In this document: positions 943 to 36,556 of the stretch, in pieces | Layout of the letters: every line of letters begins with the position of its first letter | Position numbering within the stretch: the stretch's first letter is position 1 | Origin: Actinomycetes bacterium | GTDB taxonomy: Bacteria; Actinomycetota; Acidimicrobiia; Acidimicrobiales; RAAP-2 | Direction of reading: 5' to 3' | Assembly (NCBI GenBank): GCA_021848365.1 | Contig: JAJZUS010000001.1 | Location: forward strand, 540,608 to 604,607 | DNA length: 64,000 nucleotides | Made by a program: the position numbers and the translations under genes | The notes under the pieces: generated by a model | What the model was told of the DNA's origin: nothing | The model's input: the letters and a program-made list of their open reading frames with translations, nothing else | The model's database searches: none

Positions 943-1143
943 GTGCCGCAGGGAACCGTGAAGTGGTTCAACGACGAGAAGGGTTGGGGGTTCATCGCCG
1001 TCGAGGGGCAGCCGGACGTCTTCGTCCACTACTCCGAGATCCAGTCCGAGGGACGCCGCACCCTCGTCGAGGGACAGACCGTCAGCTTCGACATGGAGGC
1101 CGGCGAGCGCGGACCGCTCGCCAAGCGCGTCGTCCTCGGCTGA
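943..1143 (+). CDS. cspA: Cold-shock protein (CSD family)
   Basis: [15 protein letters not shown] (RNP1) and VFVHYS (RNP2); 66 aa; AAGGAGG RBS at 932-938. Confidence 0.97.
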
Positions 1144-1167
1144 CTTTCCGGGGGGTCCCCCCGCGGT

Positions 1168-1200
1168 TAGAGTGGTCCCCGTGGTTACCGGAGGGTAACC
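1168..1200 (+). promoter_or_regulatory. -10 box and palindromic operator upstream of the acyl-CoA dehydrogenase
   Basis: TAGAGT at 1168-1173; GGTTACC-N4-GGTAACC at 1183-1200. Confidence 0.55.
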
Positions 1201-1222
1201 CTAGCGAATGGCGGGGTGAGCC

Positions 1223-2437
1223 GTGGCGGACTTCTCGATGGCACTGAACGACGACCAGCGCACGCTGCGCGACTGGGTCCACGGATTCGCGGCCGACGTC
1301 ATGCGTCCGGCCGCGGCCGAGTGGGACGAGCGCGAAGAGACGCCCTGGCCGATCATCGAGGAGGCCGCGACGCTCGGCATCTACTCGCTCGACTTCCTGG
1401 CGAACGCCGTGCTCGACCCGACGGGGCTCTCGTTCCCGATCGTCCTCGAGGAGCTCGCCTGGGGCGACGCGGGGCTCTGCATGTCGATCATGGGCAGTTC
1501 GCTCGCCGTCGCCGGGATCATGGCGAACGGCACGCCCGAGCAGCAGGCCGAGTGGATGCCCCAGTGCTTCGGGACCCCGGGCAATCTCAAGCTCGCGGCC
1601 TTCGCCGTCTCCGAGCCCGACGCCGGGAGCGACGTCTCGAGCCTGCGGACCCGCGCCGTCTACGACCAGACGACCGATGAGTGGGTCCTCAACGGCGTGA
1701 AGACCTGGATCACCAACGGCGGGATCGCCGACCTGCACGTCGTCGTCGCCTCCGTCGACCCCGAGCTCGGCGCGCGGGGCCAGGCCTCCTTCGTCGTCCC
1801 CGAGGGGACCCCGGGGATCCGCATGGGTCAGAAGTTCAAGAAGATGGGCATCCGCGCGAGCCACACCGCCGAGGTCGTCCTCGAGGACTGCCGCGTCCCC
1901 GGACGATGCCTGCTCGGGGGCAAGGACCGCCTCGACGAGCGCCTCGCGCGGGTGCGCGAGGGCAAGAAGGCCTCCTCCCAGGCGGCCATGGCCACCTTCG
2001 AGTCGACCCGGCCCGGGGTCGGGGCCCAGGCCGTGGGCATCGCCCGCGCGGCCTTCGAGTACGCGCGCGACTACGCGAAGGAGCGCCGCCAGTTCGGCCG
2101 GGCCATCGTCGAGAACCAGGCCATCGCCTTCAAGCTCGCCGACATGAAGATGGCCGTCGACGCGGCGCGCCTGCTGGTGTGGCGGGCCTCGTGGATGGCC
2201 GCCACCCGCACCCCCTTCGAGAGCGGGGAGGGCTCGATGTCGAAGCTCTTCGCCGGGGAGGCGGCCGTCAAGGTCACCGAGGAGGCCATCCAGATCCTCG
2301 GCGGCTACGGCTACGTGCGGGAGTACCCGGTCGAGCGGATGCACCGCGACGCGAAGATCTACACGATCTTCGAGGGCACCTCGGAGATCCAGCGACTCAT
2401 CATCGCCCGCGCCGTGACGGGAGTCCACGTCCGCTGA
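1223..2437 (+). CDS. Acyl-CoA dehydrogenase
   Basis: [45 protein letters not shown] (catalytic Glu); 404 aa. Confidence 0.95.
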
Positions 2438-2475
2438 ACGTCCGGACGCGCCGGGGACCCAGCGGCTCCTCGGCA

Positions 2476-2497
2476 ATGTGCTACAATTGACGCACAT
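2476..2497 (+). promoter_or_regulatory. vapBC operator palindrome containing the -10 box
   Basis: ATGTGC-TACAATTGAC-GCACAT; TACAAT at 2482-2487; overlaps the antitoxin ATG at 2496. Confidence 0.65.
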
Positions 2498-2768
2498 GAA
2501 GACGATCGGCATTCGCGAGCTCCAGCAGAACGCCTCGGCGGCTCTGCGCCGCGTGGCCGCGGGCGAGTCGCTCGGCGTCACGGACCGTGGTCGTCTGGTG
2601 GCGGTCTTGAGTGCTCCGTCGATGGCGACGGGGGCGGCCGCGCTCGTCGCCGCGGGCCGGGTCCGGCCCGCGCGACGTCCCCCGACGTCGCTGCCCGAAC
2701 CCACCGTGGTCGCCGAGTCGACCCAGGCGGTGCTCGAGGAGTTGCGTCGCGAACGCGGTGAGGCGTGA
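2496..2768 (+). CDS. vapB: Phd/YefM-family antitoxin (VapB)
   Basis: MKTIGIRELQQNASAALRRVAAGESLGVTDRGRLVA fits the Phd fold; GTGA overlap with the PIN toxin; start moved to ATG 2496. Confidence 0.9.
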   Translation: MKTIGIRELQQNASAALRRVAAGESLGVTDRGRLVAVLSAPSMATGAAALVAAGRVRPARRPPTSLPEPTVVAESTQAVLEELRRERGEA

Positions 2769-3151
2769 TCTGGTACCTCGACACGTCGGCCTTCTTGAAG
2801 GTCGTCGTCGCCGAGGCGGAGTCGCCCGCCCTGCGACGGTGGTTCGCGCGCCAGGACGAGGTCTGGTCGTCCTCGCTCCTGCAGACCGAGGCGCTTCGCG
2901 CGGGCGCTCGGCTCGGTCTCGCGAGTGACGTGGTCGAGGAGGCCCTCGAGACGATCACGCTCGTCCTCCCGACGGCGTCGACCTTCTACGTGGCGGGACA
3001 GCTGGGACCGAGCACCCTGCGCTCGCTCGACGCGCTGCACCTGGCGACGGCGCTCGAGCTGGGGTCCGACCTCGCCGGCGTCGTGACGTACGACGAGCGA
3101 CTGGTGGAGGCCGCGAGCCTCGCGTCGGTCGCGGTGCTCGCGCCACGCTGA
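2765..3151 (+). CDS. vapC: VapC PIN-domain ribonuclease toxin
   Basis: YLDTSAFLK, EA, LRSLDALHLATA and TYDERL supply the acidic PIN residues; 128 aa. Confidence 0.93.
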   Translation: MIWYLDTSAFLKVVVAEAESPALRRWFARQDEVWSSSLLQTEALRAGARLGLASDVVEEALETITLVLPTASTFYVAGQLGPSTLRSLDALHLATALELGSDLAGVVTYDERLVEAASLASVAVLAPR

Positions 3152-3200
3152 CGCGACGACTCGAAGGCCGCGTCCCTCGTCGCTGACACTGACCAAGACC

Positions 3201-3464
3201 TTGACGGAATGGGGTGGGACCAGCGCCACCCAGTCGATCACGGTCTCGTGGTCTCGGGTCCCGGGGGCGACCGGGTACCGCTGCCGCCTGCTCGGGTACG
3301 TCGGCACCCCGGTCCCCTACGCCGAGCCGAGCCTGACCTCGCTCACGACGACGGCGACGCGCTGCGCCGTCGGGAGGCTCCCGCGCACCTTTCGCTACGC
3401 GGTCGCGGTGTCCGCGCTCTCGGTCCTCGGCGAGAGCCAGCCCGCCGTGGTCACGGAGCCCTGA
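3201..3464 (+). pseudogene. Isolated fibronectin type III-like domain, probably a C-terminal gene remnant
   Basis: SITVSWSRVPGATGYR and YAVAVSALSVLGES match the FN3 pattern; TTG start only, no RBS, no signal peptide. Confidence 0.45.
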
Positions 3465-3482
3465 GCCAGAAGACCCCGACCC

Positions 3483-4898
3483 TCAGCGACTGACGATGAG
3501 GATCGTCTCGAGGGAGGAATCGCTGCAGTAGGCGATGCGGCACGTCGTCGCGGCGGCGGCGATCGCGTCGAGGGCCTCGCGGGTCACGAGCTCGCCCGGG
3601 GCGAGGAGGGGGACCCCGGGGGGGTAGGGGCAGAACTGCTCGGCGCTGACCTCGCCGATCGCCTCGCGCAGGGGGACCCGGCGCCGCTCGCGCAGGAAGG
3701 CCTCGCGCGGGGTCATGGCGACCTGGGGCTCGACCCGCCAGATCGAGAGGGGCGAGGGACGGCGGGCCTCGCCCCGGTGGGCCTCGATGAGGTCGCCCAG
3801 GAGGTCGGCGAAGGCGACGATCCACTCTGGCTCGTCGGCGACCGTCGTGGTGAGGATCAGGGTGTCGTGGTCGGCCGACTCGGGGCCGTGGCCCATCCGC
3901 CAGAGCGCCTCGCCGACGGCGACGCCGTCGGCGCCGGTGCCCGGGAGGACGAGGGTCAACTTCGTCGGGTCGACGGGACACCCGGCCGTCTCGTCGTTCA
4001 CGACGACGAGTCCCGGCACGCGCGCGAGGCGCTGTCGGGCCGTGGCGACGGCCTCGATCACGACCCCGAGGCGACGCCCGGCGTCCTCCTCGAGGGCCGC
4101 GCGCGCGCCGTCGATCGAGGCCATCAGGGTTCCCGAGGGCGAGGTCGTCGAGGTGAGGTCGACCCAGCGATCGAGGGTCGAGCGGGGGATGATCCCGGTG
4201 CGCATGCTGACGACGGCCGTCTGGGTGTAGCCGAGGAGGGCCTTGTGGACGCTCGTCACCGAGAAGTCGGCTCCCTGGGCGATCGCCCCGCGACCGGGCA
4301 GGAAGTCGAGGTGGGCCCCCCAGGCCTGGTCGACGACGAGGGGCTCGCCGTGCTCGCGCGCGACGGCGGCGAGCGCGGGGACGTCGGAGATCGTGCCGAC
4401 GTAGGAGGGGGAGGTGACGAAGAAGCCGTTCACTCGCTCCGGGAGGTCGGCGAGGGAGCGGGGCGACATCCCGATCGGGATGTTGAGCTCGGGGTGGATC
4501 TCGGGGTAGACCCAGAGCGGTCGGGCGCCGATGAGGACGAGCCCGGCCTGGGTGCTGCGGTGCGAGGTGCGGTCGATGGCGATCGGGGTGTCCTCGTCGC
4601 CCACGGTCGCGAGGGCCGCGATGTTGCCCTGGGAGGAGCCCCCAACGAGGAATCGGCTGTGCTCGGCCCCGACGGCGCGGGCCCAGAGCGCCTCGGCCTG
4701 CCCGAGGTAGTCGTTCGAGTAGGCGTTGTCGTCGACGCCACCCTGGAGAGGGATGTCGTCACGCACCGTGTCGCCGACGAGCTCGTGGGCCCACCCGGGC
4801 GCGTCGTCGAGGTAGCGGAGCTTGTGCCCCGGTACCTGCATCGGGCGACGCCGCTCGGCGCGCGCTCGGCGCCAGGCGTCCAGCAGTGGCTTCTCCAT
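3483..4898 (-). CDS. PLP-dependent Orn/Lys/Arg decarboxylase family protein
   Basis: MQVPGHK, FLVGGSSQGN, DRTSHRS, VDQAWGAH, SVHK (PLP lysine), C-terminal CPYPPGVPLLAPGE; AGAAGGA RBS. Confidence 0.92.
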   Translation of the reverse strand: MEKPLLDAWRRARAERRRPMQVPGHKLRYLDDAPGWAHELVGDTVRDDIPLQGGVDDNAYSNDYLGQAEALWARAVGAEHSRFLVGGSSQGNIAALATVGDEDTPIAIDRTSHRSTQAGLVLIGARPLWVYPEIHPELNIPIGMSPRSLADLPERVNGFFVTSPSYVGTISDVPALAAVAREHGEPLVVDQAWGAHLDFLPGRGAIAQGADFSVTSVHKALLGYTQTAVVSMRTGIIPRSTLDRWVDLTSTTSPSGTLMASIDGARAALEEDAGRRLGVVIEAVATARQRLARVPGLVVVNDETAGCPVDPTKLTLVLPGTGADGVAVGEALWRMGHGPESADHDTLILTTTVADEPEWIVAFADLLGDLIEAHRGEARRPSPLSIWRVEPQVAMTPREAFLRERRRVPLREAIGEVSAEQFCPYPPGVPLLAPGELVTREALDAIAAAATTCRIAYCSDSSLETILIVSR

Positions 4899-4967
4899 GA
4901 TCCTTCTCTCGCTATCGGCTGGCTCGTTCGGGGCGTCCGTCTCGCGCGGCCCGCGGACGGTCTCGCC

Positions 4968-5852
4968 TCACTCCTCAGCGAGTCCCGCGGCCAGCTCGTC
5001 GCGAGACTGCTCGATGCGCTCCATTCGTCGGCGCGCCGACGACCCGAGCCGGGCGAAGAGTCCGGCGACGAGGAGGTCGGTGACGGCGATGACCGACGCC
5101 ATCGAGTCGAAGGAGCTGACCGACTCGACCGCGGCGGGCAGCACGACGTCCGCGACGGCCGAGATCGGGGACATCCACGGATCGGTGACGAGGATGATCG
5201 AGGCGCCCCGTTCGGCCGCCAGTCGGGCGAGGGCGATGACGTCGTCCTGGTAGCGGCGGACGTCGTAGACGACGCAGACCGTGCGCGGCCCGACGTCGGC
5301 GAGGAAGCCCGACTCGGGCTGCTGACTCCACGAGAGGAGTCGGGTGTCCGGGCGCAGGAGGCGCAGCTGGAGGTCGAGGTACTCGGCCCCGAGCCGGGTG
5401 AATCGCCCGCCGAAGGCGATCACGTGGTGTCGCGGGTTGGCGAGGAGCGTGACGGCCCGGTCGAGGTCGGTGGGGAGGATGGTCGTCATGGTCCGGCGCA
5501 GTCCGGCCCCGAGGATCGACCAGGCTCGCTCGCAGAGTTGGTCGGCCGGGGCGTCGGCGACGTCCAGGGTGAGCGGGGAGGCGCCCCGCACGGAGAGCTC
5601 GGCGCGTATGGCCTCCTGGAGCTCGCGGTAGCCGGGGTAGCCGAGTTGGACGGCGAAGCGCACGACCGTGGGGGCACTCACCCCGGCCCGGCGAGCCAGC
5701 TCGGCCGAGGGGTGCAGCCCGGCCATGGGGTAGTCGGCCATGAGGGCGCGCGCGATCTTGCGCTCCCCGGGGGTGAACAGGTCGGCCCGACTGCGGAGCC
5801 GCTCCATGACCGAGCGGACGTCGCCCTCGGTCGTCGCGTCGCTCGGAGCCAC
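4968..5852 (-). CDS. RpiR/MurR-family transcriptional regulator (HTH + SIS)
   Basis: FTPGERKIARAL..SAELARRAGVSAPTVVRFAVQLGYPGY HTH, followed by an SIS domain. GTG 5852 is 6 nt after TACGCT (5859-5864). Confidence 0.9.
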   Translation of the reverse strand: MAPSDATTEGDVRSVMERLRSRADLFTPGERKIARALMADYPMAGLHPSAELARRAGVSAPTVVRFAVQLGYPGYRELQEAIRAELSVRGASPLTLDVADAPADQLCERAWSILGAGLRRTMTTILPTDLDRAVTLLANPRHHVIAFGGRFTRLGAEYLDLQLRLLRPDTRLLSWSQQPESGFLADVGPRTVCVVYDVRRYQDDVIALARLAAERGASIILVTDPWMSPISAVADVVLPAAVESVSSFDSMASVIAVTDLLVAGLFARLGSSARRRMERIEQSRDELAAGLAEE

Positions 5853-5933
5853 GTCCGTAGCGTACCGATGGGCCCGCCGCTCGTCCGGCCGCTCCCGACG
5901 GACCGGCGCGGACCGGGCTCGCACGACGTCGTC

Positions 5934-6725
5934 CTAGAGCGCCGACACGGTCGTCGTGAGGTCGCTCCGTCGCACCCGCAGGATCGAGTCGGGCGGCAGG
6001 GTCTCCCACTCGCCGGGGAGACCCGAGTGGGCCGCGACGACGCCGCCGGGCCGCTCCGACCAACTGAGGTCGAAGTACCGGTCGAGGTGGGCCGGCGGGA
6101 TGTTCTCGGGCGCGCCGCAGGACTCCTCGAGATCGTCCGTCGGCATCGGCATCCCGGTGTGGGAGTGGACGACGCAGAGCTCGTCGTCGGTGAGGACGAT
6201 GGCGTTGAGACTGGCCACGGGGGCGAACGTGCGAATCGTCGCGACGGTGGCCCGCAAGGCGTCGGCGAGGTCGGGGTGGTGGGTCAGGGACTGGAGGAGG
6301 AGGAGGAAGTAGAGCTCGGAGTCGGTGTCACCGCGCCGCAGCGCCCGCTGCTCGACGTCGAGCAGCGGCTCGATCTCGTCGTGCTCGGCGACCGAGCCGT
6401 TGTGGGCGAAGGCGATCGGTCCGCGGGGGTGGGCGACGAAGGGATGGGTGTTCTCCTCGCGCACCGGCAGGCCGAGGGAGGCCCAGCGCAGGTGCACGAG
6501 GCCGGCGTGAGATCGATCACCGCGCAGCGCCGCGAGGTGGTCGTCATCGCGCGCCGCGCGAGGGGAGCGGTAGACGGCGACCTCGCCGGGCGAGTCCGAC
6601 ACCGCGTAGCCCCAGCCGTCACCGTGGAGTCGCGACAGGTCGACGAACTCGTCGAAGGCGGCGTCCCCGAGGACCCCGGTGGCGCCGGACGGCGTCGTGG
6701 ACGCGAAGCACATCAGCCGACACAT
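5934..6725 (-). CDS. Class II glutamine amidotransferase (Ntn hydrolase, YafJ/EgtC-like)
   Basis: N-terminal MCRL (Cys2 nucleophile), HGDGWG, HLRWAS, ENTHPF, FAHNG, GDTDSE; GGGAGG RBS. Confidence 0.9.
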   Translation of the reverse strand: MCRLMCFASTTPSGATGVLGDAAFDEFVDLSRLHGDGWGYAVSDSPGEVAVYRSPRAARDDDHLAALRGDRSHAGLVHLRWASLGLPVREENTHPFVAHPRGPIAFAHNGSVAEHDEIEPLLDVEQRALRRGDTDSELYFLLLLQSLTHHPDLADALRATVATIRTFAPVASLNAIVLTDDELCVVHSHTGMPMPTDDLEESCGAPENIPPAHLDRYFDLSWSERPGGVVAAHSGLPGEWETLPPDSILRVRRSDLTTTVSAL

Positions 6726-6746
6726 TTCCCGCCTCCCGGTTAGTTG

Positions 6747-6799
6747 TGTTTCGTTTCATGCGATGCTATCGTCCGCGACAATGAATTCTAACGTTCATT
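6747..6799. promoter_or_regulatory. Divergent promoter region with a candidate operator
   Basis: Locally AT-rich; AATGAA-N8-TTCATT at 6780-6799 enclosing TAACGT; an extra GTTTCAT half-site near 6753-6759. Confidence 0.5.
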
Positions 6800-6849
6800 T
6801 GACGCGATGGCTCTCCCGACCGGGAGACGAGCTCGTCGACTACACGCCC

Positions 6850-8190
6850 GTGGCCGACGAGGCCATGGTCAGCGCCCTCGAGGGGGAACTGCGCGGCCGG
6901 GGCGTACGGACCGTGCGGGGCACCTTCGTCGACTCCTCGGGGGTGCTGCGCGCGAAGCAGGTGCCCCTCTCGCGGCTCGGGGCCTTCAACCGCTCCGGAC
7001 TGGGCGCGTCGAACTCCTGGGCCGTCTTCGGCGCCGACGACCTACTCTGCATGACCCCGCGCTTCTCGGCCGTCGGCGACATGCGGCTGCGCGCCGACCT
7101 CGACACCGTGGTCGACCTCGGCGAGGGGGTGGCGTGGACGCCGCTCAGCCTCGTCGACCAGGACGGCGTCGCCCTCGACTACTGCGCCCGCACCGTCCTG
7201 CGGCGTCAGATCCGCGCGGCGAACGAGGTCGGGCTCTCCGTCGTCGCCGCGACCGAGGTCGAGTTCACCGTCTACGACGCCGAGCGCCGCCCCCTCGGGG
7301 GTGCCTCCTACGGGTGGACGCGACTCAGCGGCTACGAGCCCTTCGTCGACGCGCTGTCCCGCTCCCTCGAGAGCGCCGGGGTGCCGCTCGAGCAGTTGCA
7401 CGGAGAGTACGGCCCGGGCCAGTTCGAGCTCTCGGTGGCTCCGGCGAACCCCCTCGCCGCGGCCGACCTGAACGTGCTGGTGCGCGTCGTGATCTCGCGG
7501 GTCGCGCGCTCCTTCGGCTACGCCGTCTCCTTCTCGCCCAAGCCCTTCGCCGACGCCATCGGCAACGGGGCCCACTCCCACCTCTCCTTTCGCCGCGAGG
7601 GTCGTCCCCTCCTCTCGGGGGGCGACGGCCCCCACGGCCTCACCCCCGAGGGGGCGAGCATCGTCGCGGCCTACGTCCGCTACCTCCCCGAGATGGTCGG
7701 CGTCCTCGCGTCGTCGGCCCTCTCGAGCACGCGCCTGCAGCCCTCGACCTGGTCGGGGGCGTACGCGTGCTGGGGTCTCGAGAACCGCGAGGCCGCGGTG
7801 CGGCTCTGCGCCGCGACGCGGGGCAACCCCCACGGCGCCAACGTCGAGGTCAAGTGCGTCGACCCGGCGGCCAACGTCTACGCCGCCTACGCGGCGCTCG
7901 TCGGGGTCGCTCGTCGCGCGCTCGAGTTCCCGGAAGAACTCGGACCCGAGACGACCGTCGACCCGGCGGACCTCAGCCCGGCCGAGCGCGACGCGAGCGG
8001 CATCACCCTCGTGGGAGCCGATCACGCGGCGGTGCTCGACCGGTTCGAGTCCTCGAGCGCGATGCTCGAGGTCCTCGGTGAGGCCTTCGTCGAGACGACC
8101 CTCGCCGTGCGGCGTCACGAGGCCGACCTCGTCGCCGCCGAGGGCATCGCGGCCGTCGCCGAGCGCCTGACCTTCGCGTGGTCGGCCTAG
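6850..8190 (+). CDS. glnA3: GlnA3-type glutamine synthetase-like gamma-glutamyl-(poly)amine ligase
   Basis: GLGAS, EVEF, EQLHGEYGPGQFE, GNGAHSHLS, WGLENREAAVR, NVEVK..DPAAN and the AWSA terminus match M. tuberculosis GlnA3 as I recall it. Start uncertain (6781, 6850 or 6865). Confidence 0.85.
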   Translation: MADEAMVSALEGELRGRGVRTVRGTFVDSSGVLRAKQVPLSRLGAFNRSGLGASNSWAVFGADDLLCMTPRFSAVGDMRLRADLDTVVDLGEGVAWTPLSLVDQDGVALDYCARTVLRRQIRAANEVGLSVVAATEVEFTVYDAERRPLGGASYGWTRLSGYEPFVDALSRSLESAGVPLEQLHGEYGPGQFELSVAPANPLAAADLNVLVRVVISRVARSFGYAVSFSPKPFADAIGNGAHSHLSFRREGRPLLSGGDGPHGLTPEGASIVAAYVRYLPEMVGVLASSALSSTRLQPSTWSGAYACWGLENREAAVRLCAATRGNPHGANVEVKCVDPAANVYAAYAALVGVARRALEFPEELGPETTVDPADLSPAERDASGITLVGADHAAVLDRFESSSAMLEVLGEAFVETTLAVRRHEADLVAAEGIAAVAERLTFAWSA

Positions 8191-8238
8191 CCGGAGATTT
8201 CGTCGCAGTACCGAGAAACAACTAGGGGGGAAGGAAGC

Positions 8239-9744
8239 ATGTCGACAGATTCGGCACCACCGAGGGTGGGTAAGCGGAAGCTGAAGCTGTGGGGGGCGGT
8301 CGCCATCTCACTGGGCATCGTCGGGCCGACGCTGGCGATGGCGGGCAACGGACAGGGGACGGTCGCGGTCGTGGGCAAGTCGGTGCCGCTCGTCTTCGTC
8401 TTTGGCGCCATTGGCATCGCGCTCATCGGCCACAGCTTCATCCGCCTGACGCAGCGCTACTCGCACGCCGGCAGTTCCTACGCCCTCGTCGGGCTCACGA
8501 TCGGCAAGCGGGCGGGCTTCCTCGCCGGGTTCGCGGTGATGATGACCTACGTCTTCTTCGCCATCTGCACACTGGGCGCCGTGGCGAGCTTCCTCAACGC
8601 CTTCCTGGCGGCGGCCGACAGCGGAGCGGCGCACCCGCCGCACGTGCCTTGGGTCCTGGTCGCCCTGATCGCCGTCGTCGTCGGGCTCTTCTTCAATACT
8701 CGCGACATCCAGACCGTGGCGCGCGCGCTGCTCGCCATCGAGGGACTCGGCATCGTCTGCATGACGATCCTCACGATCGTCATCATCTCGAAGGGCGGCG
8801 CCCACTCGACCGGCGTCGACTGGAGCACCTTCTCGCTGAAGGGCAATAGCTTCTCGACGATCATGGGCGCCGTCGTGGCGGCCTTCCTCTCGTGGGCCGG
8901 GTTCGAGGGCTGTGCGGCGCTCGGGGAGGAGACCGACGACCCCAAGCGCAACATCCCGCGGGCCCTGGCCTGGGCCGTGGCGCTCACCGCGGTGCTCTTC
9001 GTGATGGTGATGTTCGCCCAGACCATCGGCTACGGCACCAACGCCGCGGGTCTGCACACCTTCGCCACCCAGGGCAACTCGCTGACGACCCTCGGAAAGA
9101 CCTACATCGGGACCTGGTTCTCCCTCGTCATCTCGTTCGCGGCGGTGATCTCGGCCTTCGCCTGCCACCTGGCCTCGGTGGCGACGGCCGGTCGACTCAT
9201 GTGGGTCTTCAGCCGTGACGGTCTCGGCCCGAAGGGCTGGTCGCGTCTCGACTCTCGCCACTCCCAGCCGGTCAACGCCATCTTCACCGTGGCCGCCGTG
9301 ACGGCCGTCCTGGCGATCCTCGGGGGCATCACCAAGCACCCGGTCGTCGGCACCGGCGACCCGGCGCTCGACTTCTACTTCTACTACGCCACCATCGGCG
9401 CGATGGTGCTGATGTTCGCCTACTTCATGATGGAGCTCGGCACGATCAAGCACCTGCTCGTCGAGCGTCGCGAGAAGGCGGGCGAGGTCGTCTTCCCGAT
9501 CATCGGGGCCCTCTTGATGCTGGCCGTCTTCTACTACAACGTGAAGGGCCAGACCCAGTGGACGGCGGCGCCCTTCATCGCCTTCATGATCCTCGGGGTG
9601 GGCCTGCTCATCACCCTCTTCCTGCCCGGACTCGCGGACAAGGTCGCGGCGGGGCTCTCCTCCGAGCCCGAGGAGGCCGGCCCGGTCGGCAAGGACCTCC
9701 TCGCCCCGGGCATCGAGGCCCACCTCCCGGCGGGGCAGGACTAG
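8239..9744 (+). CDS. APC-family amino acid/polyamine permease
   Basis: About 12 hydrophobic segments; HAGSSY, SWAGFEGCAALGEETDDPKRNIPRA; GGAAGGA RBS. Confidence 0.93.
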   Translation: MSTDSAPPRVGKRKLKLWGAVAISLGIVGPTLAMAGNGQGTVAVVGKSVPLVFVFGAIGIALIGHSFIRLTQRYSHAGSSYALVGLTIGKRAGFLAGFAVMMTYVFFAICTLGAVASFLNAFLAAADSGAAHPPHVPWVLVALIAVVVGLFFNTRDIQTVARALLAIEGLGIVCMTILTIVIISKGGAHSTGVDWSTFSLKGNSFSTIMGAVVAAFLSWAGFEGCAALGEETDDPKRNIPRALAWAVALTAVLFVMVMFAQTIGYGTNAAGLHTFATQGNSLTTLGKTYIGTWFSLVISFAAVISAFACHLASVATAGRLMWVFSRDGLGPKGWSRLDSRHSQPVNAIFTVAAVTAVLAILGGITKHPVVGTGDPALDFYFYYATIGAMVLMFAYFMMELGTIKHLLVERREKAGEVVFPIIGALLMLAVFYYNVKGQTQWTAAPFIAFMILGVGLLITLFLPGLADKVAAGLSSEPEEAGPVGKDLLAPGIEAHLPAGQD

Positions 9745-9747
9745 TCC

Positions 9748-11073
9748 GTGCAGCCCGACCTCTCGTCACTGCCGGCCGAGGCGGCCGACCTCTATCGACG
9801 CGACCTGAAGGCGGTCGCCGGGATCGAGAAGCTGCGCTTCTTCCCGCTGGCCGTCGTCTCCGGCGAGGGCTCCTGGCTCGTCGAGGCGGGTGGACGTCGC
9901 GTGCTTGACCTCACCTCGACCTGGACGGCCTCGGGTCTCGGCTACGGTCACCCCGCCGTCGTCGAGGCGCTCACCCGGGCGGTGCAGGCACCGCCCGGCT
10001 CGGGCGGGCTCTCGGCGGTCCACCCCGACTCGGTCGGCCTGGCCGAGGACCTGCTCGCCCTCACCCCGGGCGAGGGCGAGCGACGCGTCTACCTGGGCCA
10101 CGCCGGCTCCGACGCGTGCGACGTCGCGCTGCGCGCCGTGCGGCTCGCCACCGGCAAGCGACGGATCATCGCCTTCGAGCACTCCTACCACGGCGGCGTG
10201 GGCGTCGCCCTCGGCGCGTCGGGGGTGCACGTCGAGGCCGGCTCGGTCGCGGCCGACCCGGACGTCGTCTTCGTCCCCTACCCGAACCCCTACCGGGAGG
10301 ATGCGCTGACTGCCCTCGCCGCCACTTTCGCCGCGATCGACGAGGCGCTGGCGGGGGGCGACGTGGCGGCCCTCATCGTCGAGCCCTTCCTCGCCGACGG
10401 GGGCATGGTGGTGCCCCCCGAGGGCTTCCTGCGCGGCTGCGCCGAGCGGGCCCGCGCGGCCGGTGTGCCCCTCATCGTCGATGAGGTCAAGGTCGGCCTC
10501 GGTCGCTCGGGGATGCTGCACGCCTTCCAGATCGAGGGCATCGTCCCCGACGTGGTCTGCTTCGGCAAGGTCCTCGGCGGGGGCCTGCCCCTCTCGGCCT
10601 GCGTCGGTCCCGCGTGGATTCTCGATGGTCCCCCGGCGGCGGCCCTCTTGACGACGGCCGGCAACCCCATCTGCTCCGCCGTCGGACGGGCCGTCCTGCG
10701 CACGCTCGTCGACGACGACCTGCCCGGTCGAGCGCGCGCCGCGGGCGAGCGCCTGCGGGCCGGGCTCCGGGCGGCCGATCTGCCCCAGGTCGGCGACGTG
10801 CGCGGGCACGGGCTCTCGATCGGGTGCGAGCTGGTGGAGGACCGGGCGAGCAAGACCCCGGCGCGGACCCTCGCGGCGAAGGTCGTCTACCGGGCCTTCG
10901 AGCTCGGGGCGGCCGTCTTCTACGTCGGGGGCAACACCCTCGAGATCACGCCGCCGCTCATCATCACCGACGAGGAGGTCGACCACGGCGTCGAGATCCT
11001 CGTCACGGCGATCCGCGACGCCGCGGCCGGCCGGGTGTCCGACGCGCTCGTCGCGCCCTACGCGGGGTGGTGA
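9748..11073 (+). CDS. Class III PLP enzyme resembling alpha-amino-epsilon-caprolactam / amino acid amide racemase
   Basis: LYRRD..KLRFFPLA, GLGYGHP, EPFLADGG, DEVKVGLGRSG, FGKVLGGG, C-terminal YAGW. These match Achromobacter obae ACL racemase as recalled. Confidence 0.75.
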   Translation: MQPDLSSLPAEAADLYRRDLKAVAGIEKLRFFPLAVVSGEGSWLVEAGGRRVLDLTSTWTASGLGYGHPAVVEALTRAVQAPPGSGGLSAVHPDSVGLAEDLLALTPGEGERRVYLGHAGSDACDVALRAVRLATGKRRIIAFEHSYHGGVGVALGASGVHVEAGSVAADPDVVFVPYPNPYREDALTALAATFAAIDEALAGGDVAALIVEPFLADGGMVVPPEGFLRGCAERARAAGVPLIVDEVKVGLGRSGMLHAFQIEGIVPDVVCFGKVLGGGLPLSACVGPAWILDGPPAAALLTTAGNPICSAVGRAVLRTLVDDDLPGRARAAGERLRAGLRAADLPQVGDVRGHGLSIGCELVEDRASKTPARTLAAKVVYRAFELGAAVFYVGGNTLEITPPLIITDEEVDHGVEILVTAIRDAAAGRVSDALVAPYAGW

Positions 11074-12191
11074 GCGTGGGCCTCGCCGAGGAGATCGCCT
11101 CGATCCCCCTGCTCGATCACCACGTCCACGGCGCCCTCAAGGATCCGCTCGACCAGGCGGCGCTCGAGTCGACGATCACCGAGTCGGACCGACCACCGGC
11201 GCCCGGGGTCTCGAGCTTCGACTCGCCGGTCGGCTTCGCACTGCTGCGCTTCTGCGCGCCCCTGCTCGACCTCGATGGCGAGGTCAGCCGGGCGGGCTAC
11301 GTGGAGCGGCGCCTCGAGCTCGGGCCCGAGGAGGTCAACCGCCGCTTGCTGCGGGCGAGCGGAATCGCGACCTACCTCGTCGACACCGGCTTCAACTCCG
11401 ACGGCCTCCTCGACGTCGCCGAGATGGCGAGCGCGGGCGCGGCGGAGACCCACGAGGTGGTGCGGCTGGAGGCCATCGCCCAGCGCCTCCTCACGGAGGA
11501 GATCCCTTCGGCGGAGTTCGCCCACGCGCTCGCCGCTGAGCTCGAGCAGTCCCGCACGCGCGGCGTCGTCGGAACGAAGAGCGTGCTGGCCTACCGGGCC
11601 GGCTTCGACATCGATACGACCCGTCCCGACGACGCGGCACTGCGCGCGGCCCTCGATCGCCAGCGAGCCCGCACCACGCGAATCGACGACCCGGTCCTGC
11701 TCGCCGAGCTGCTCTGGGCGGGGATCGATCTCGGGCTGCCCCTGCAGATCCACACCGGATTCGGCGACACCGACCTGACGCTGCACCGCTCGAACCCGAG
11801 CCTGCTCACCCCGTTCCTGCGTGCGAGCGAAGCCTCGGGCACGCCCGTCGTCCTGCTCCACTGCTACCCGTATCACCGCGAGGCGGCCTACCTCGCCCAG
11901 ATGTTTCCCCACGTCTACTTCGACGTGGGGGAGGCCCTCAACTACGCCGGGGCCCAGAGCCGCCAGATCGTCGCCGAGTCCTTCGCCCTGGCGCCCTTCG
12001 CAAAGCAGCTCTTCTCGTCCGACGCCTGGGGGCCGGCCGAGCTCCACTACCTGGGTGCCCTCCTGTGGCGCCGGGCCATGACGCGCGTGCTCGGGGAGTG
12101 GGTCGACGACGGCGACTGGAGCGAGGCCCAGGCCCACCGGGTCGTCGCGATGGTGGCGAGCGAGAACGCTCGCACCGTCTACCGGATCTGA
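11070..12191 (+). CDS. Amidohydrolase_2 family protein (FluG N-terminal / Rv1879-like)
   Basis: DHHVHG, KSVLAYRAG, LQIHTGFGD, LLHCYPY, FSSDAWG; GTGA overlap with the upstream stop codon. Confidence 0.88.
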   Translation: MSVGLAEEIASIPLLDHHVHGALKDPLDQAALESTITESDRPPAPGVSSFDSPVGFALLRFCAPLLDLDGEVSRAGYVERRLELGPEEVNRRLLRASGIATYLVDTGFNSDGLLDVAEMASAGAAETHEVVRLEAIAQRLLTEEIPSAEFAHALAAELEQSRTRGVVGTKSVLAYRAGFDIDTTRPDDAALRAALDRQRARTTRIDDPVLLAELLWAGIDLGLPLQIHTGFGDTDLTLHRSNPSLLTPFLRASEASGTPVVLLHCYPYHREAAYLAQMFPHVYFDVGEALNYAGAQSRQIVAESFALAPFAKQLFSSDAWGPAELHYLGALLWRRAMTRVLGEWVDDGDWSEAQAHRVVAMVASENARTVYRI

Positions 12192-12228
12192 GCGGCGACA
12201 CGAACGTCGGTCCGCCTACCATGGACGG

Positions 12229-12726
12229 ATCGACTCGGTCATCGTCTTCGTCGCCAAGTACTTCCTCTACCTGAGCGTCGCGGCCGTCGGCGTCTACTGG
12301 CTGCGGGCCCGCCGCTCCGACAAGGTCACCCTCGCCTGGCACCTCATCCTCGGCGGGCTCATCGCCCTCGGCCTCGCGCGCCTCGGCGGCCACCTCTACT
12401 ACAACCCCCGACCCTTCGTGACGGGACACCTCACACCCCTCTTCCCCCACGCGCCCGATAACGGATTCCCCTCGGACCACGCCCTGCTCACGTCGTTCCT
12501 CGCCTTCTCGCTGTGGCGGTGGTCACGACCGTTCGCCGCGGTCCTCTTCGCGAACGCGATCCTGGTGGGCGGAGCGCGCGTCCTCGCCCACGTCCACCAC
12601 GTGATCGACATCCTCGGCTCCTACGGGTTCGCCCTGGTGGCCGTCCTCGTGATCGCCGGGATCGAGCGCTACCGCGCCCACGGGCTCAGTCCGCGGCGGC
12701 GAGGAGACGTCGGCTGGCGGAGCTGA
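12229..12726 (+). CDS. PAP2-family membrane phosphatase (BcrC-like undecaprenyl-diphosphatase); start codon non-canonical or lost
   Basis: RPF, FPSDH and RVLAHVHHVIDI motifs. The frame is open from ATC 12229 with no in-frame ATG/GTG/TTG before 12418. Confidence 0.75.
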   Translation: MDSVIVFVAKYFLYLSVAAVGVYWLRARRSDKVTLAWHLILGGLIALGLARLGGHLYYNPRPFVTGHLTPLFPHAPDNGFPSDHALLTSFLAFSLWRWSRPFAAVLFANAILVGGARVLAHVHHVIDILGSYGFALVAVLVIAGIERYRAHGLSPRRRGDVGWRS

Positions 12727-13573
12727 GCGTCGTCCCGGCCCGCCAGAGGGCCCGGATGGACCGGGTGAGCCGCAGTCCGCTGACCGGGACGACGACGAGG
12801 CGCCCGCCCGCGATCTCCCCCTCGACGGCCAGTCGGCTGACGACGGCCGGGCCGATCCCCCGGGCGACGGCCTCCTTCACCGCGGTCGTCGACGCCAGCT
12901 CGACGGCGTAGTGGGGGGCGAGGCCCCGCTCGGCGAGAGCCCCCTCCAGGACCTCGCGCGTCCCCGAGCCCGTCTCCCGTCCGACCAGGGCGCTCGCCGC
13001 GAGCCCCGACGCCGGCACCGGGCTGCGTCGTCGCGCCCAGGGATGTCCCGGGGCCACCACGACGACCAGCTCGTCGAGGTGGACGCCCCGCCCCTCGAGG
13101 CCCCGGGGGAGGTGGAGTCCCTCGACGAAGCCGATCTCCGCCTCGCCCGACTCGACGAGGGCCGCGACGCCCCGCGAGTTCGCCATGCGCAGGGAGACCG
13201 TCACCGGGGGAGTGGCGTCGTAGAGCGGGGCGATCCAGCCGGGCAGGAGGTACTCGGCGACGGTGAGGGAGGCGGCGAGTCGCAGGACGCCGCCGCGCTC
13301 CTCGCGACGCCGTCGCGCCACCGCCGCGACCTCGTCGAGGGCGAGCAGGGCCGCCCGGGCGCTCGGGACCAGGGCGAGTCCGTCATCGCTCAGGCGGGCC
13401 CCCCGCGTCGCGCGCTCGAGGAGCTCGAGGCCGAGGTGGGCCTCGAGCTCGCGCAGCCGGACGCTGGCGGCCGGCTGACTGAGACCGAGGCGCCGCGCGG
13501 CCGACGTGATCGACCCACTCTCCTCCAGGGCGACGAGGAGGGTCAGGGTCGTCGGGTCGATGGGGTCAGTCAT
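12686..13573 (-). CDS. LysR-family regulator (CysL/YeiE-like)
   Basis: GSITSAARRLGLSQPAASVRLRELE HTH; LRLAASLTVAEYLLP; RETGSGTR. Confidence 0.93.
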   Translation of the reverse strand: MTDPIDPTTLTLLVALEESGSITSAARRLGLSQPAASVRLRELEAHLGLELLERATRGARLSDDGLALVPSARAALLALDEVAAVARRRREERGGVLRLAASLTVAEYLLPGWIAPLYDATPPVTVSLRMANSRGVAALVESGEAEIGFVEGLHLPRGLEGRGVHLDELVVVVAPGHPWARRRSPVPASGLAASALVGRETGSGTREVLEGALAERGLAPHYAVELASTTAVKEAVARGIGPAVVSRLAVEGEIAGGRLVVVPVSGLRLTRSIRALWRAGTTLSSASRRLLAAAD

Positions 13574-13588
13574 AAGCAGAGCCTATGA
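13570..13588. promoter_or_regulatory. LysR-type binding palindrome
   Basis: TCATA-N9-TATGA overlapping the lysR start codon and its -10 box (13580-13585). Confidence 0.65.
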
Positions 13589-13657
13589 CTTTGTACGGCA
13601 GGAGGGGTAAGAAAGGGCCTGCGACAACGGAAGACTGGATCCAACGAAGGAGGATCC

Positions 13658-14683
13658 ATGACGATCACCGATACCCCGCCGGCAACGGCCACGCGACGCC
13701 TCGCCCCCGGCCTCGCGCTGGCCTCGGCGCTCGGGCTCGCCGCCTGGCTGATCGCCCGGATCGTTCCCCTCGTCGGGGCGCCGGTCGTCGCGATCGTCCT
13801 CGGCGTCCTCGTCGCCCTGGTGCGTCCGGTGGGGCCGGGGCTGCGCCCGGGGGTCCACCTCGCGGCGAAGCGGGTCCTCCAGCTCTCGATCGTCGTCCTC
13901 GGCCTCGAGCTCTCCTGGCACGAGGTCGTCGTCACCGGGCTTTCCTCGTTGCCGGTCCTCCTCGGCACCCTCGTCGTCGCCCTCGGCGGCGCCTGGCTCG
14001 TCGGGCGCCTCGTCGGCATCGAGGGCGACCTGCGGACCCTCATCGGGGTCGGCACCGCCATCTGCGGGGCGAGCGCCATCGCGGCGACCGACGCGGTGAT
14101 CGACGCCCACGAGCGCGACGTCGCCTACGCAGTCGCGACGATCTTCACCTTCAACGTGGCGGCCGTCCTCACGTTCCCCTCGGTCGGGCACCTCCTGCAC
14201 CTCTCGCCCCACGCCTTCGGGGTGTGGGCCGGGACGGCGGTCAACGACGTGTCCTCGGTCGTCGCCGCCTCGAGCGCCTACGGGCACAACGCGAGCGCCA
14301 CCGCAGTCGTCGTGAAGCTCGCCCGCAGCCTCGCCATCGTGCCGATCGCCCTCGGCCTCTCGCTGCTGCGCACCAGCAAGGTGGCCCACGCCGAGGGACG
14401 GAGCCGCGTCGCGGTCGCCCGTCGCGCCTTCCCCTGGTTCATCCTCTGGTTCCTCGCCGCGGTCGCGGTCGACTCCCTCGGCCTCGTCCCGCGCACCATC
14501 ATCCCCGGCCTCGGTCAGTTGGCCCAGCTGCTCATCGCCATCGCGCTGGCGGGAGTGGGGCTCTCGGTTCGCCCGCGCGAGATCCGCTCGGCCGGCTGGC
14601 GGCCCCTCGCCCTCGGGGCGATCCTCTGGGTCCTCGTCGGCGCGTCCAGCCTCGCGATCGCCCACGTCTTCCCGACTCACTAG
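13658..14683 (+). CDS. YeiH-family membrane protein (putative sulfate exporter family)
   Basis: IGVGTAICGASAIAAT, GVWAGTAVNDVSSVVAA, VKLAR; divergent from the LysR gene; AAGGAGG RBS. Confidence 0.92.
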   Translation: MTITDTPPATATRRLAPGLALASALGLAAWLIARIVPLVGAPVVAIVLGVLVALVRPVGPGLRPGVHLAAKRVLQLSIVVLGLELSWHEVVVTGLSSLPVLLGTLVVALGGAWLVGRLVGIEGDLRTLIGVGTAICGASAIAATDAVIDAHERDVAYAVATIFTFNVAAVLTFPSVGHLLHLSPHAFGVWAGTAVNDVSSVVAASSAYGHNASATAVVVKLARSLAIVPIALGLSLLRTSKVAHAEGRSRVAVARRAFPWFILWFLAAVAVDSLGLVPRTIIPGLGQLAQLLIAIALAGVGLSVRPREIRSAGWRPLALGAILWVLVGASSLAIAHVFPTH

Positions 14684-15927: not shown

Positions 15928-18603
<2,676 letters not shown>

Positions 18604-18607
<4 letters not shown>

Positions 18608-36519: not shown

Positions 36520-36556
36520 GCGGCCGTAACATGGGACGGTCGAACGGCAGGTGGTG

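Follow-up and report, generated by a model that had tools for sequence, protein, structure and literature searches.

The window analysed here, a stretch of 64,000 nt from a metagenome-assembled genome of the Acidimicrobiaceae (source: mine drainage), carries an operon in which genes for a GS-like ligase, a permease, a putative racemase and an amidohydrolase follow each other in this order, with the gene for an EgtC-like hydrolase in divergent orientation and those for an RpiR regulator and a decarboxylase next to it (Table 1). The putative racemase, ORF 9748-11073, probably belongs to the family of alpha-amino-epsilon-caprolactam (ACL) racemases (ACLR) and amino-acid-amide racemases (AAAR), a small group of vitamin-B6 enzymes that interconvert the enantiomers of amino-acid amides and lactams.

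Table 1. Genes of the locus and motifs of the putative racemase, in coordinates of the window.
Feature	Position	Strand	Description
Short-form Orn/Lys/Arg decarboxylase	3483..4898	-	471 aa; conserved beside the module
RpiR/MurR-family regulator	4968..5924	-	HTH_6 + SIS
EgtC-like class-II (Ntn) glutamine-amidotransferase-like hydrolase	5934..6725	-	conserved divergent partner
GS-like gamma-glutamyl-amine ligase	6781..8190	+	469 aa; Gln-synt_C; best PDB match 4hpp; syntenic
APC-family amino-acid/amine permease	8239..9744	+	ends 4 nt before the racemase start
ACLR/AAAR-family gene	9748..11073	+	intact ORF, GTG start, 441 aa; class-III PLP fold, PF00202
KLRFFPLA N-terminal motif	9829..9852	+	aa 28-35; common to ACLRs, not in GabT/ArgD
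W59	9922..9924	+	Trp of A. obae / R. freirei 'LSGAWGAAS'
EPFLADGG	10381..10404	+	aa 212-219, includes D217
D217	10396..10398	+	D210 of ACLR; transaminases have Glu
DEVKVGLGRSG	10480..10512	+	aa 245-255
DEVK, D245 to K248	10480..10491	+	D245 = D238, pyridine-N partner; K248 = K241
K274 in CFGKV (aa 271-275)	10567..10569	+	PLP Schiff-base lysine, K267 of ACLR
E399 in NTLEITPPL	10942..10944	+	where GabT NVLRILVPL has the alpha-carboxylate-binding Arg
W441, final residue of YAGW (aa 438-441)	11068..11070	+	stop codon immediately after
Amidohydro_2 metal hydrolase	11070..12191	+	373 aa, GTG start; best PDB relative 2qpx, of unknown function

The GTG start of the amidohydrolase gene overlaps the stop codon of the putative racemase gene (GTGA, 4 nt), which suggests translational coupling. 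The NCBIfam model closest to the GS-like ligase is gamma-glutamylputrescine synthetase, with a score under the cut-off; the EgtC-like hydrolase is a candidate gamma-glutamyl-amide hydrolase. A promoter and terminator scan of positions 6600-12800 gave no signals, no inverted repeats were found in the 55-nt divergent intergenic region, and tRNA and Rfam scans of the 64-kb window came back empty; the larger ORFs scanned between 22 and 64 kb are housekeeping or signalling genes with no evident link to the pathway, and none of the ORFs scanned with Pfam has an aldehyde-dehydrogenase or amine-oxidase domain. A search for sequencing runs, with no restriction on their type, yielded only metagenome runs labelled as probable DNA and none labelled as RNA.

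At the loci compared, the racemase gene always stands beside a transporter and an amide-type hydrolase. The gene set is conserved in Actinomycetota, where the hydrolase is of the Amidohydro_2 family. Versions with other hydrolases are found in Alpha- and Gammaproteobacteria, with isochorismatase and formylglutamate-amidohydrolase-family (FGase) genes in Brucella, Shinella, and Klebsiella. In Leucobacter, the racemase gene is accompanied by a polysaccharide-deacetylase-family gene and an NCS1 permease. At roughly 17 of 31 related genome loci, the gene immediately 3' of the racemase gene is of the Amidohydro_2 family; in Mycobacterium yunnanensis the decarboxylase gene has its place inside the operon, immediately after the amidohydrolase, and in Actinomycetota, Brucella, Shinella, and Klebsiella the module comes with an RpiR gene. 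The alphaproteobacterial module adjoins a near-orthologue of a characterised ACLR, and many Klebsiella plasmids carry the module (the permease there is 46% identical to the one in the window). The same gene set is found in a Brevibacterium genome paper, under the automatic label '2-aminohexano-6-lactam racemase'; a literature search on the module of GS-like, FGase, isochorismatase, and RpiR genes turned up nothing relevant.

Aminotran_3 (PF00202) is the sole Pfam family matched by ORF 9748-11073, and no NCBIfam model reaches its cut-off, the best match staying below half of it: the GabT and ArgD models give 184-237 bits (cut-offs 410-639), LeuMetRace gives 236 bits (cut-off 800), and the model for Ala/Ser racemase gives 217 bits (cut-off 639). 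NCBIfam thus gives the ORF no name; for its homologues, JGI uses '4-aminobutyrate aminotransferase', the label that a preliminary description of this DNA had expected from automatic annotation, and NCBI uses 'aspartate aminotransferase family protein'. In a phmmer search of the PDB, the ACLR/AAAR entries are matched at E-values of 3e-119 to 1e-114 and about 384-402 bits, other racemases at 205-228 bits and GabT at 200, with nothing outside ACLR/AAAR above 228 bits. Judged by these scores, the likeness to ACLR/AAAR is far beyond chance. Over the full length, the ORF is 48.6% identical to 5m46, 47.3% to 6gio, and 47.0% to 2zuk, against 31% to GabT and 27.5% to ArgD; the characterised ACLR/AAAR enzymes are themselves just 53% identical to each other.

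The check proposed in the preliminary description, an alignment and tree against GabT and ArgD, places the ORF with the racemases: in a neighbor-joining tree (90 taxa, 60 bootstraps), GabT and ArgD stay outside the racemase clade in 60/60 bootstraps. The smallest clade that holds the ORF together with the three racemases comprises 30 of the 90 taxa; this exact 30-member set is recovered in only 13/60 bootstraps, and the internal branching of the clade is therefore soft. The branch of the ORF is sister to the clade of all three solved enzymes, and a characterised member was looked for on it, with none found; the sub-branch includes a Celeribacter homologue (64% identity), from a Rhodobacteraceae relative of Citreicella sp. 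SE45, the source of a characterised ACLR. The AF2 model of the ORF (pLDDT 87.1, with low confidence in loop 297-303, which adjoins the active site) leads to the same family: its 12 best Foldseek matches are all ACLR/AAAR chains (TM 0.87-0.92), followed at ranks 13-24 by free-amino-acid racemases of the same fold with 29-32% identity.

All the motifs from which the preliminary description had argued (KLRFFPLA, EPFLAD-GG, DEVK, FGK, and the C-terminal AGW) could be placed by coordinate, and the equivalences it had given for D210, K241, K267, and the terminal Trp hold in the alignment, where these columns match in the enzymes of A. obae, R. freirei, and O. anthropi. In the phmmer alignments to PDB entries, the columns of D217 and K248 are those that are Ala in 5m4b and 5m4d, which by their entry titles are the D210A and K241A mutants of ACLR; catalytic roles for D210 and K241 were reportedly described by Okazaki in 2009 and Frese in 2017. 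Among 150 close homologues, the residues equivalent to D210, K241, and K267 are conserved in 150/150 each, as is the G of the C-terminus, and the W in 149/150; all complete homologues end in '[YF]-x-G-W-stop'. Y147 and D245 align with Y137 and D238 of ACLR, and with K274 the PLP-binding set of ACLR is complete in the alignment; in 5M46, D238 and Y137 are partners of PLP (PMC6424897). The W59 column is Ala in O. anthropi AAAR and Ile in GabT and ArgD.

The K248 column is Gln both in transaminases and in free-amino-acid racemases. The two carboxylate-binding arginines of GabT, R141 and R398, are lost, with G150 (at the arginine of GabT YHGR) and E399 in their place; in the three solved ACLR/AAAR enzymes these columns are C/N and E, respectively. 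The columns are taken from the alignment, and the numbers Glu211, Gln242, Arg141, and Arg398 follow the numbering of E. coli GabT. The preliminary description made no mention of the loss of both substrate arginines, which together with the Lys of DEVK is the real discriminator.

Scored over 103 full-length representatives of 50% clusters, these positions define three signature classes. The D-K-E-W class, comprising all top scorers, has 21 representatives; D-Q-R-W has 8, and the one member tested finds its best match among free-amino-acid racemases; E-Q-R without the terminal Trp, the pattern shared by E. coli GabT and ArgD, has 24, every one of them at 220 bits or less. Neither the Asp before GG nor the terminal Trp is specific to ACLR, as both also occur in free-amino-acid racemases; in these alignments it is the Lys of DEVK and the Glu replacing Arg that set the ACL class apart. 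Of the ACLR signature read in the preliminary description, the Lys therefore discriminates, whereas the Asp and the terminal Trp do not.

The homology, the residues, the clade membership, and the fold together point to a PLP-dependent fold-type-I racemase of the ACL/AAAR family (EC 5.1.1.15-like) rather than a transaminase, a reading to which we assign a probability of roughly 0.78; the racemase activity and the role of each residue are predicted by comparison with the solved enzymes. K274 would hold PLP as the internal aldimine and be displaced by a substrate with a free alpha-amino group and a masked carboxyl (an amide, lactam, ester, or thiolactone). The alpha-proton would then be removed, leaving a carbanion stabilised by the pyridine ring, which would be protonated by D245 and stacked on Y147, and a proton would be given back on the opposite face. 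One face would be served by K274, while the D217/K248 pair, standing in for the Glu/Gln of transaminases, would line the other side of the pocket; as G150 and E399 replace both substrate arginines, there is presumably nowhere for a carboxylate or 2-oxo acid to bind. Relative to A. obae ACLR, the pocket has L215 for Gln, G150 for Cys, and TTAG for TLHG, and the substrate range may therefore differ.

These pocket differences, on a branch that is itself uncharacterised, bear on the alternative that survives best: that the ORF has the fold and chemistry of ACLR, with a native reaction or substrate class other than the racemisation of amides and lactams, for example epimerisation of a natural-product intermediate, a reaction on homoserine lactone or homocysteine thiolactone, or a non-racemisation PLP reaction on an amide. 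It would be in keeping with this that the natural substrate of the ACLR family is undocumented in the literature searched, that AoACLR also acts on homocysteine thiolactone (PMC11391342), and that amino-acid esters are substrates of ACLR homologues (PMC7431475). Nevertheless we consider it unlikely, given that the catalytic set is fully conserved and that transporters recur beside amide-type hydrolases in three non-homologous versions; such partners agree better with an amide or lactam that is taken up and hydrolysed than with biosynthesis.

Still less probable is a true class-III aminotransferase of the PuuE/GabT/SpuC type, whose likeness to ACLR would be merely phylogenetic and which would deaminate GABA, a polyamine, or a gamma-glutamyl-polyamine in an operon for amine catabolism by gamma-glutamylation. 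The surroundings lend themselves to such a reading: the adjoining GS-like ligase, gamma-glutamyl-type hydrolase, permease, and decarboxylase recall the puu cluster of E. coli, which ends with puuE and has the class-III transaminase PuuE as a normal member; the only Pfam family is Aminotran_3, pipelines call the homologues GABA aminotransferase, and A. obae ACLR is reported to show slow side transamination. Against it, both substrate arginines of GabT are gone and its Glu211/Gln242 pair has become Asp/Lys, the E-Q-R representatives all lie in the low-scoring group without a terminal Trp, no NCBIfam transaminase model comes near its cut-off, GabT stays outside the clade in every bootstrap, and neither an aldehyde-dehydrogenase nor an amine-oxidase domain turned up among the ORFs scanned with Pfam. 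Of the members of a Puu-type pathway (GS-like ligase, gamma-glutamyl-amine oxidase, aldehyde dehydrogenase, gamma-glutamyl hydrolase, and transaminase), the locus has the ligase and a candidate for the hydrolase; its class-III protein lacks the transaminase residues. The transaminase reading is rejected on the residues and the tree.

A free-amino-acid racemase or epimerase (of the isoleucine 2-epimerase, Pyrococcus broad-specificity, or Ala/Ser racemase type) is the next-best relative in PDB score and fold rank, and 9wrf, read residue by residue, has in common with the ORF both the Asp that precedes GG and the Trp at the C-terminus, but this class keeps the Gln and the carboxylate Arg (DEVQ and NVLRIAPPL in 9wrf) where the ORF has Lys and Glu, and the LeuMetRace and Ala/Ser models stay far below their cut-offs, so that this reading, rejected on K248 and E399, is the most improbable.

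With the ORF taken as a racemase of the ACL/AAAR family, the operon as a whole might tentatively be read as serving the catabolism of a compound taken up from outside, an alpha-amino amide or lactam derived from a basic amino acid. The permease would import the compound, and the racemase would funnel both enantiomers to the coupled amidohydrolase, or else to a stereospecific GS-like ligase; the amino acid released would then be decarboxylated. The ligase would add a gamma-glutamyl group that the EgtC-like hydrolase later removes, comparable to amine catabolism of the Puu or GlnA4 type. Beyond this locus, the recurring gene set (RpiR regulator, GS-like ligase, transporter, ACL-type racemase, and two hydrolases in interchangeable, non-homologous versions) could conceivably represent an undescribed pathway for the breakdown of alpha-amino amides or lactams, the likeliest substrates being lysine or ornithine lactam or the amides of basic amino acids. 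Were this so, the racemase would perform a dynamic kinetic resolution in vivo, the amine would be handled by gamma-glutamylation, and a natural role would be defined for ACLRs, so far known as industrial catalysts only. The literature searched yielded nothing on the physiological role or natural substrate of the family, and the conserved operon provides a testable hypothesis for its native substrate, which extends to the partners: the 2qpx-like amidohydrolase, the EgtC-like hydrolase, and the GS-like ligase. The operon, which the preliminary description called informative, is a putative gene cluster for uptake and breakdown, conserved across phyla, and gives a testable clue to the natural role.

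The same description had considered an actinobacterial member valuable: the source is indeed actinobacterial, but such homologues are not rare, many being present in public data. By alignment, the catalytic signature is complete in a large sister lineage of Actinomycetota, and as none of the NCBIfam models captures this lineage, the pipelines mislabel most of its members. With a residue rule (Asp before GG, DEVK, Glu at the carboxylate-Arg position, and G-W at the C-terminus), thousands of database entries would be corrected and further enzymes would join the panel, to which the ORF adds a variant from an acid-mine-drainage organism. The ORF would be an actinobacterial addition to the already known ACLR/AAAR family, with a predicted activity and a putative natural substrate.

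Among the known enzymes, the ACLRs of A. obae (2ZUK/3DXV/3DXW) and R. freirei (5M46 series) are 47-49% identical to the ORF (TM 0.87-0.91), and all have KLRFFPL, the Trp of 'AWG/TWT', GHxGSDA, D210, D238-E-V-K241, K267, Glu in the place of the carboxylate Arg, and a C-terminal '..AGW'. The ORF differs from them in EPFLAD for EPIQSD, YHGG for YHGC, and TTAGNP for TLHGNP, in its sister branch and actinobacterial host, and in its partner hydrolases, which are Amidohydro_2 and EgtC-like here and of the isochorismatase and FGase families in the ACLR systems. O. anthropi AAAR (6GIO; 47% identity) is the best structural match at TM 0.92 and shares EPxLxDGG, DEVKVGLGR, FGK, TTAGNP, and the terminal Trp, but has Ala for W59 and a C-terminal MMW where the ORF has AGW. 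The fold is also that of isoleucine 2-epimerase (4YSN/5WYA) and of the Pyrococcus racemases (9WRF, 9WQZ), to which the ORF is 29-32% identical; both 9WRF and the D-Q-R-W class, which best matches these enzymes, retain the DEVQ Gln and the carboxylate Arg in place of Lys and Glu. GabT and PuuE have in common with the ORF the Pfam family, the PLP lysine, the D-E-V motif, and the overall fold; at 31% identity, however, GabT has E211, Q242, R141, and R398 for D217, K248, G150, and E399, and lacks the Trp-ended C-terminal extension.

At the level of the operon, the closest parallels are the E. coli puu and S. coelicolor glnA4 clusters, which likewise combine a GS-like ligase, a permease, and a proposed hydrolase for removal of the gamma-glutamyl group; the glnA4 cluster (SCO1610-1615) is the ethanolamine cluster of S. 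coelicolor, with a divergently transcribed regulator and with SCO1615, which is predicted to be a gamma-glutamylglycine amidohydrolase of the FGase family (PMC6529630). Where these clusters have oxidase or dehydrogenase steps, the present operon has the racemase and an amide-type hydrolase, and a basic-amino-acid decarboxylase is added in several lineages of the module. The pairing of racemase and hydrolase itself has an industrial counterpart in the L-lysine process, in which ACLR and L-ACL hydrolase, combined from separately sourced catalysts, convert both enantiomers of the lactam or amide (PMC7431475, PMC6061476). The Amidohydro_2 hydrolase of the operon is uncharacterised and comes from a family unrelated to the industrial L-ACL hydrolase, and the pairing here, unlike that of the process, is native and conserved, with genes that overlap by 4 nt.

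The 441-aa product of the racemase ORF is, with a probability of roughly 0.78, a PLP racemase of α-amino compounds with a masked carboxyl group; this reading is based on homology, active-site residues, clade and fold, and the activity and the residue roles are predicted from these. The ORF is single and intact in the ORF listing of the window, and all motifs quoted in the preliminary description are found in its translation (see table). It starts 4 nt after the permease stop and ends in a TGA that shares bases with the GTG start codon of the amidohydrolase gene (GTGA), which places it inside an operon. Very long antisense or out-of-frame ORFs, of up to 988 aa, also run through the region; the 988-aa ORF has no match in Pfam, and another is the amidohydrolase frame extended upstream, overlapping the racemase gene out of frame. 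They are by-products of the G+C content of ~73%, the genes being only the frames with GC3 > 0.9.

Coordinates of the racemase gene, its motifs and surroundings, and of related modules in other records (window positions unless a record is named)
Feature	Position	Strand	Remark
PhdYeFM-antitoxin/PIN-toxin gene pair	2496-3151	+	90 + 128 aa, 4-nt overlap
Short Orn/Lys/Arg decarboxylase	3483-4898	-	
RpiR/MurR regulator	4968-5924	-	
EgtC-like class-II amidotransferase-type hydrolase	5934-6725	-	
GS-like ligase	6781-8190	+	divergent from the three genes at 3483-6725
APC permease	8239-9744	+	
Racemase	9748-11073	+	GTG start
KLRFFPLA	aa 28-35		racemase ORF
EPFLADGG	aa 212-219		racemase ORF
DEVK	aa 245-248		racemase ORF
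FGK	aa 272-274		racemase ORF
YAGW	C-terminal end		racemase ORF; stop codon directly after
Amidohydro_2 hydrolase	11070-12191	+	
Long ORF	3777-6743	+	
Long ORF	8308-9723	-	
Long ORF	9766-10986	-	
Long ORF	10614-12191	+	extended amidohydrolase frame
Cytochrome c maturation cluster	17972-22474	+	ccmA-like ABC ATPase, CcmB, CcmC-type, CcmE, CcmF
Signalling genes, dense	29884-39139; 48757-50232		
Module of pOANT01 (NC_009669.1)	5228-10311		Brucella (Ochrobactrum) anthropi ATCC 49188 (L040)
Module of OW969657.1	59725-79026		Klebsiella plasmid (L042)
Module variant, JGI 3300037150 contig	517-13954		L044
Deacetylase-family/racemase locus	8803-12821		L034

Pfam assigns the protein to the class-III aminotransferase family and to nothing else, and all NCBIfam models stay far below their cut-offs (best 291 bits, where 608 are needed); close homologues are thus named '4-aminobutyrate aminotransferase' or 'aspartate aminotransferase family protein' by their sources, the former being the label that had been predicted. 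In the PDB, the seven best sequence matches are the Rhizobium freirei α-amino-ε-caprolactam (ACL) racemase (ACLR) series 5m46, 5m49, 5m4d and 5m4b (398-402 bits), the O. anthropi amino-acid-amide racemase (AAAR) 6gio (388 bits) and the Achromobacter obae ACLR 2zuk and 3dxw (384 bits), after which the scores drop to 205-228 bits for other class-III-fold racemases and 200 for GabT. Full-length identity is 48.6%, 47.3% and 47.0% to the three solved racemases, 31% to E. coli GabT and 27.5% to ArgD; the O. anthropi enzyme shares only 53% with the other two, so the distance from the protein to each characterised enzyme is barely greater than the distances among them. A Foldseek search with its AlphaFold2 model (mean pLDDT 87.1, pTM 0.88) returns ACLR/AAAR chains as the 12 best matches (TM 0.87-0.92), followed by free-amino-acid racemases and only then by GABA transaminases.

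In HMMER alignments, D217 and K248 share columns with the alanines of 5m4b and 5m4d, which are by their PDB titles the D210A and K241A mutants, bearing out the correspondence to D210 and K241 proposed earlier. K274 corresponds to K267, the PLP Schiff-base lysine, and D245 and Y147 to D238 and Y137, which in 5M46 contact the pyridine nitrogen and the ring of PLP, respectively (PMC6424897). W59 matches the Trp of 'AWG' in both ACLRs, which is Ala in the O. anthropi enzyme. Two further substitutions, absent from the preliminary description and taken straight from the alignment, are G150 and E399, which stand where GabT has the arginines of YHGR and NVLRILVPL, in columns occupied by C/N and E, respectively, in the three solved racemases. 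These arginines, R141 and R398 of GabT, which bind the substrate carboxylates, are both lost; this suits substrates that lack a free carboxylate and speaks against the use of 2-oxoglutarate. Across 150 close homologues, there is no variation in the Asp, the two Lys or the terminal G, and 149 have the terminal W; every complete homologue among 31 related genome loci ends in Tyr/Phe-x-Gly-Trp-stop. In the predicted reaction, K274 would form the aldimine with the substrate, D245 and Y147 would stabilise the quinonoid, and the D217/K248 pair would occupy the pocket where transaminases have Glu/Gln.

To assess how specific this signature is, the protein was scored against one representative per 50% cluster of ~15 billion proteins, and the columns of D217, K248, E399 and the terminal Trp were read in 103 full-length representatives. 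D-K-E-W is found in 21, comprising every top scorer from 532 down to ~235 bits; 24 have E-Q-R without the terminal Trp, the pattern of E. coli GabT and ArgD; and eight have D-Q-R-W (P0144, P0146, P0152, P0161, P0168, P0186, P0214 and P0246), a class that sits between ACL-type racemases and transaminases. For one D-Q-R-W member, the highest scores are those to 9wrf, the Pyrococcus broad-specificity amino-acid racemase (395 bits), and to isoleucine 2-epimerase (380), and 9wrf itself carries EPIQGDAG, DEVQ and NVLRIAPPL and ends in RAW; Asp and terminal Trp thus mark the whole racemase superclade of the class-III fold, and the C-terminal Trp seems to be characteristic of all its racemases. The signature proposed from the sequence is therefore correct but discriminates only in part, since its Asp and Trp are common to this superclade, while the ACL/amide subclass is marked by the DEVK Lys together with the Glu that replaces Arg.

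In a neighbour-joining tree (Kimura distances, 90 taxa, 418 columns), the smallest clade uniting the protein with the three solved racemases has 30 taxa, with D-K-E-W in every member whose columns had been scored. GabT and ArgD fall outside the racemase clade in 60/60 bootstrap replicates, the outcome expected of a racemase in the tree check proposed beforehand; the exact 30-member set is recovered in only 13/60, so the internal branching is soft. The basal split places the three solved enzymes on one side and the window protein on the other, with Nocardioides, Mycobacterium, Streptomyces, Leucobacter and a nested alphaproteobacterial group (Celeribacter, Cohaesibacter, Rhodobium). No characterised member is verified on this large, mostly actinobacterial sister branch, to which the window gene belongs as an uncharacterised family member; an ACLR from Citreicella sp. 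SE45, cited as characterised in PMC6061476, might belong there.

That the protein has ACLR chemistry with another native substrate or another outcome is unlikely. A true transaminase within a Puu-like operon is quite improbable, since residue pattern, scores and tree all contradict it. The reading as a free-amino-acid racemase, the next group in the fold search, is contradicted by K248 and E399 and is hardly credible.

The source is a metagenome-assembled genome of the Acidimicrobiaceae (GCA_027395525.1); the window sequence occurs in mine-drainage metagenomes, and the nearest genome records are Acidimicrobiaceae and Acidimicrobiales. For the GS-like ligase, the nearest model is gamma-glutamylputrescine synthetase, below cut-off, and the best PDB match 4hpp; the sole PDB relative of the Amidohydro_2 hydrolase is 2qpx, of unknown function. 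Contig ends truncate many of the 31 loci; across the set, ~22 have the permease immediately upstream of the racemase gene, ~17 have the Amidohydro_2 gene immediately downstream, and ~18 contain a GS-like gene. Nocardioides aquiterrae, Jatrophihabitans and Mycobacterium are among them, with identities of just 38-55% for the partner proteins. Mycobacterium yunnanensis has the decarboxylase gene within the operon, directly behind that of the amidohydrolase. A module variant on a JGI contig has two GS-like genes, an M20 peptidase and the decarboxylase, with a D-serine-dehydratase-like gene (Ala_racemase_N fold) and an ornithine cyclodeaminase directly downstream, possibly a hint of ornithine or D-amino-acid chemistry. 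Elsewhere in the window, the PhdYeFM/PIN pair, whose gene calls and Pfam marks are those of the identical public contig, is located immediately upstream of the decarboxylase, a glycosyltransferase and a GDP-mannose-dehydratase-family gene precede the cytochrome c maturation cluster, and the signalling genes encode a 1148-aa multi-PAS/GAF/EAL protein, a 666-aa PAS/GAF protein, a PdtaS-type GAF histidine kinase and a PAS-GGDEF cyclase.

The module recurs in other lineages. On pOANT01, RpiR, isochorismatase-family, GS-like and formylglutamate-amidohydrolase-family genes are followed by the racemase gene, last in the operon and 83.5% identical to the characterised R. freirei ACLR, with an ABC transporter alongside; Shinella has the same parts, and since B. 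anthropi ATCC 49188 is culturable, the native role of an ACLR is testable there. A version of the racemase gene is found in 44 Klebsiella plasmid records; in the one inspected, the order is MurR, GS-like, PuuP-like permease, ACL-type racemase and FGase-like and RutB-like hydrolases (of the FGase-like and isochorismatase kinds), with identities to the window of 63% for the racemase and 46% each for the GS-like protein and the APC permease. This plasmid module adjoins an arsenic-resistance operon. Celeribacter, Cohaesibacter and Rhodobium have the proteobacterial version, and a Brevibacterium genomic island carries an ipuC-type ligase, murR, cadA, a '2-aminohexano-6-lactam racemase' and PuuP (PMC12467314). 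In Leucobacter, Ancrocorticia and some Acidimicrobiales (L020, L021, L030, L032, L033, L034), a polysaccharide-deacetylase-family hydrolase gene directly precedes the racemase gene, a third, non-homologous hydrolase-racemase pairing; the Leucobacter and Ancrocorticia loci (L032-L034) also have an NCS1 (hydantoin/allantoin-type) permease beside it. The constant core is transporter, racemase and amide-type hydrolases, with GS-like ligase and RpiR regulator usual; the hydrolase pair is swapped for non-homologous versions between phyla, an argument for the same two hydrolytic steps being required throughout.

The ACLR family, its signature and its recognisability in silico are already known, and some pipelines put the ACLR name on homologues. 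For the cross-phylum module of ACL-type racemase, GS-like ligase, transporter and interchangeable hydrolases, and for the three-class residue rule, no description was found in the searchable literature; together they make the natural role of the family testable. Tentatively, the permease-racemase-hydrolase operon may break down the amide or lactam of a basic amino acid. That the conserved decarboxylase is one for basic amino acids points to a substrate derived from lysine, ornithine or arginine, with the lactams and amides of these as candidates; ACL is the lactam of lysine. Gamma-glutamylation would either precede hydrolysis, with the amide as its substrate, or follow decarboxylation, with the polyamine as its substrate; among the ORFs scanned, a part of those in the window, neither an oxidase nor an aldehyde-dehydrogenase domain is found. 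The translational coupling of racemase to hydrolase mirrors the industrial pairing of a racemase with an L-specific hydrolase (PMC7431475, PMC6061476), and the pairing of the GS-like ligase with an EgtC-like or FGase-family hydrolase resembles the protect/deprotect logic proposed for the Streptomyces glnA4 cluster, in which the FGase-family SCO1615 is a predicted gamma-glutamyl-amino-acid hydrolase (PMC6529630).
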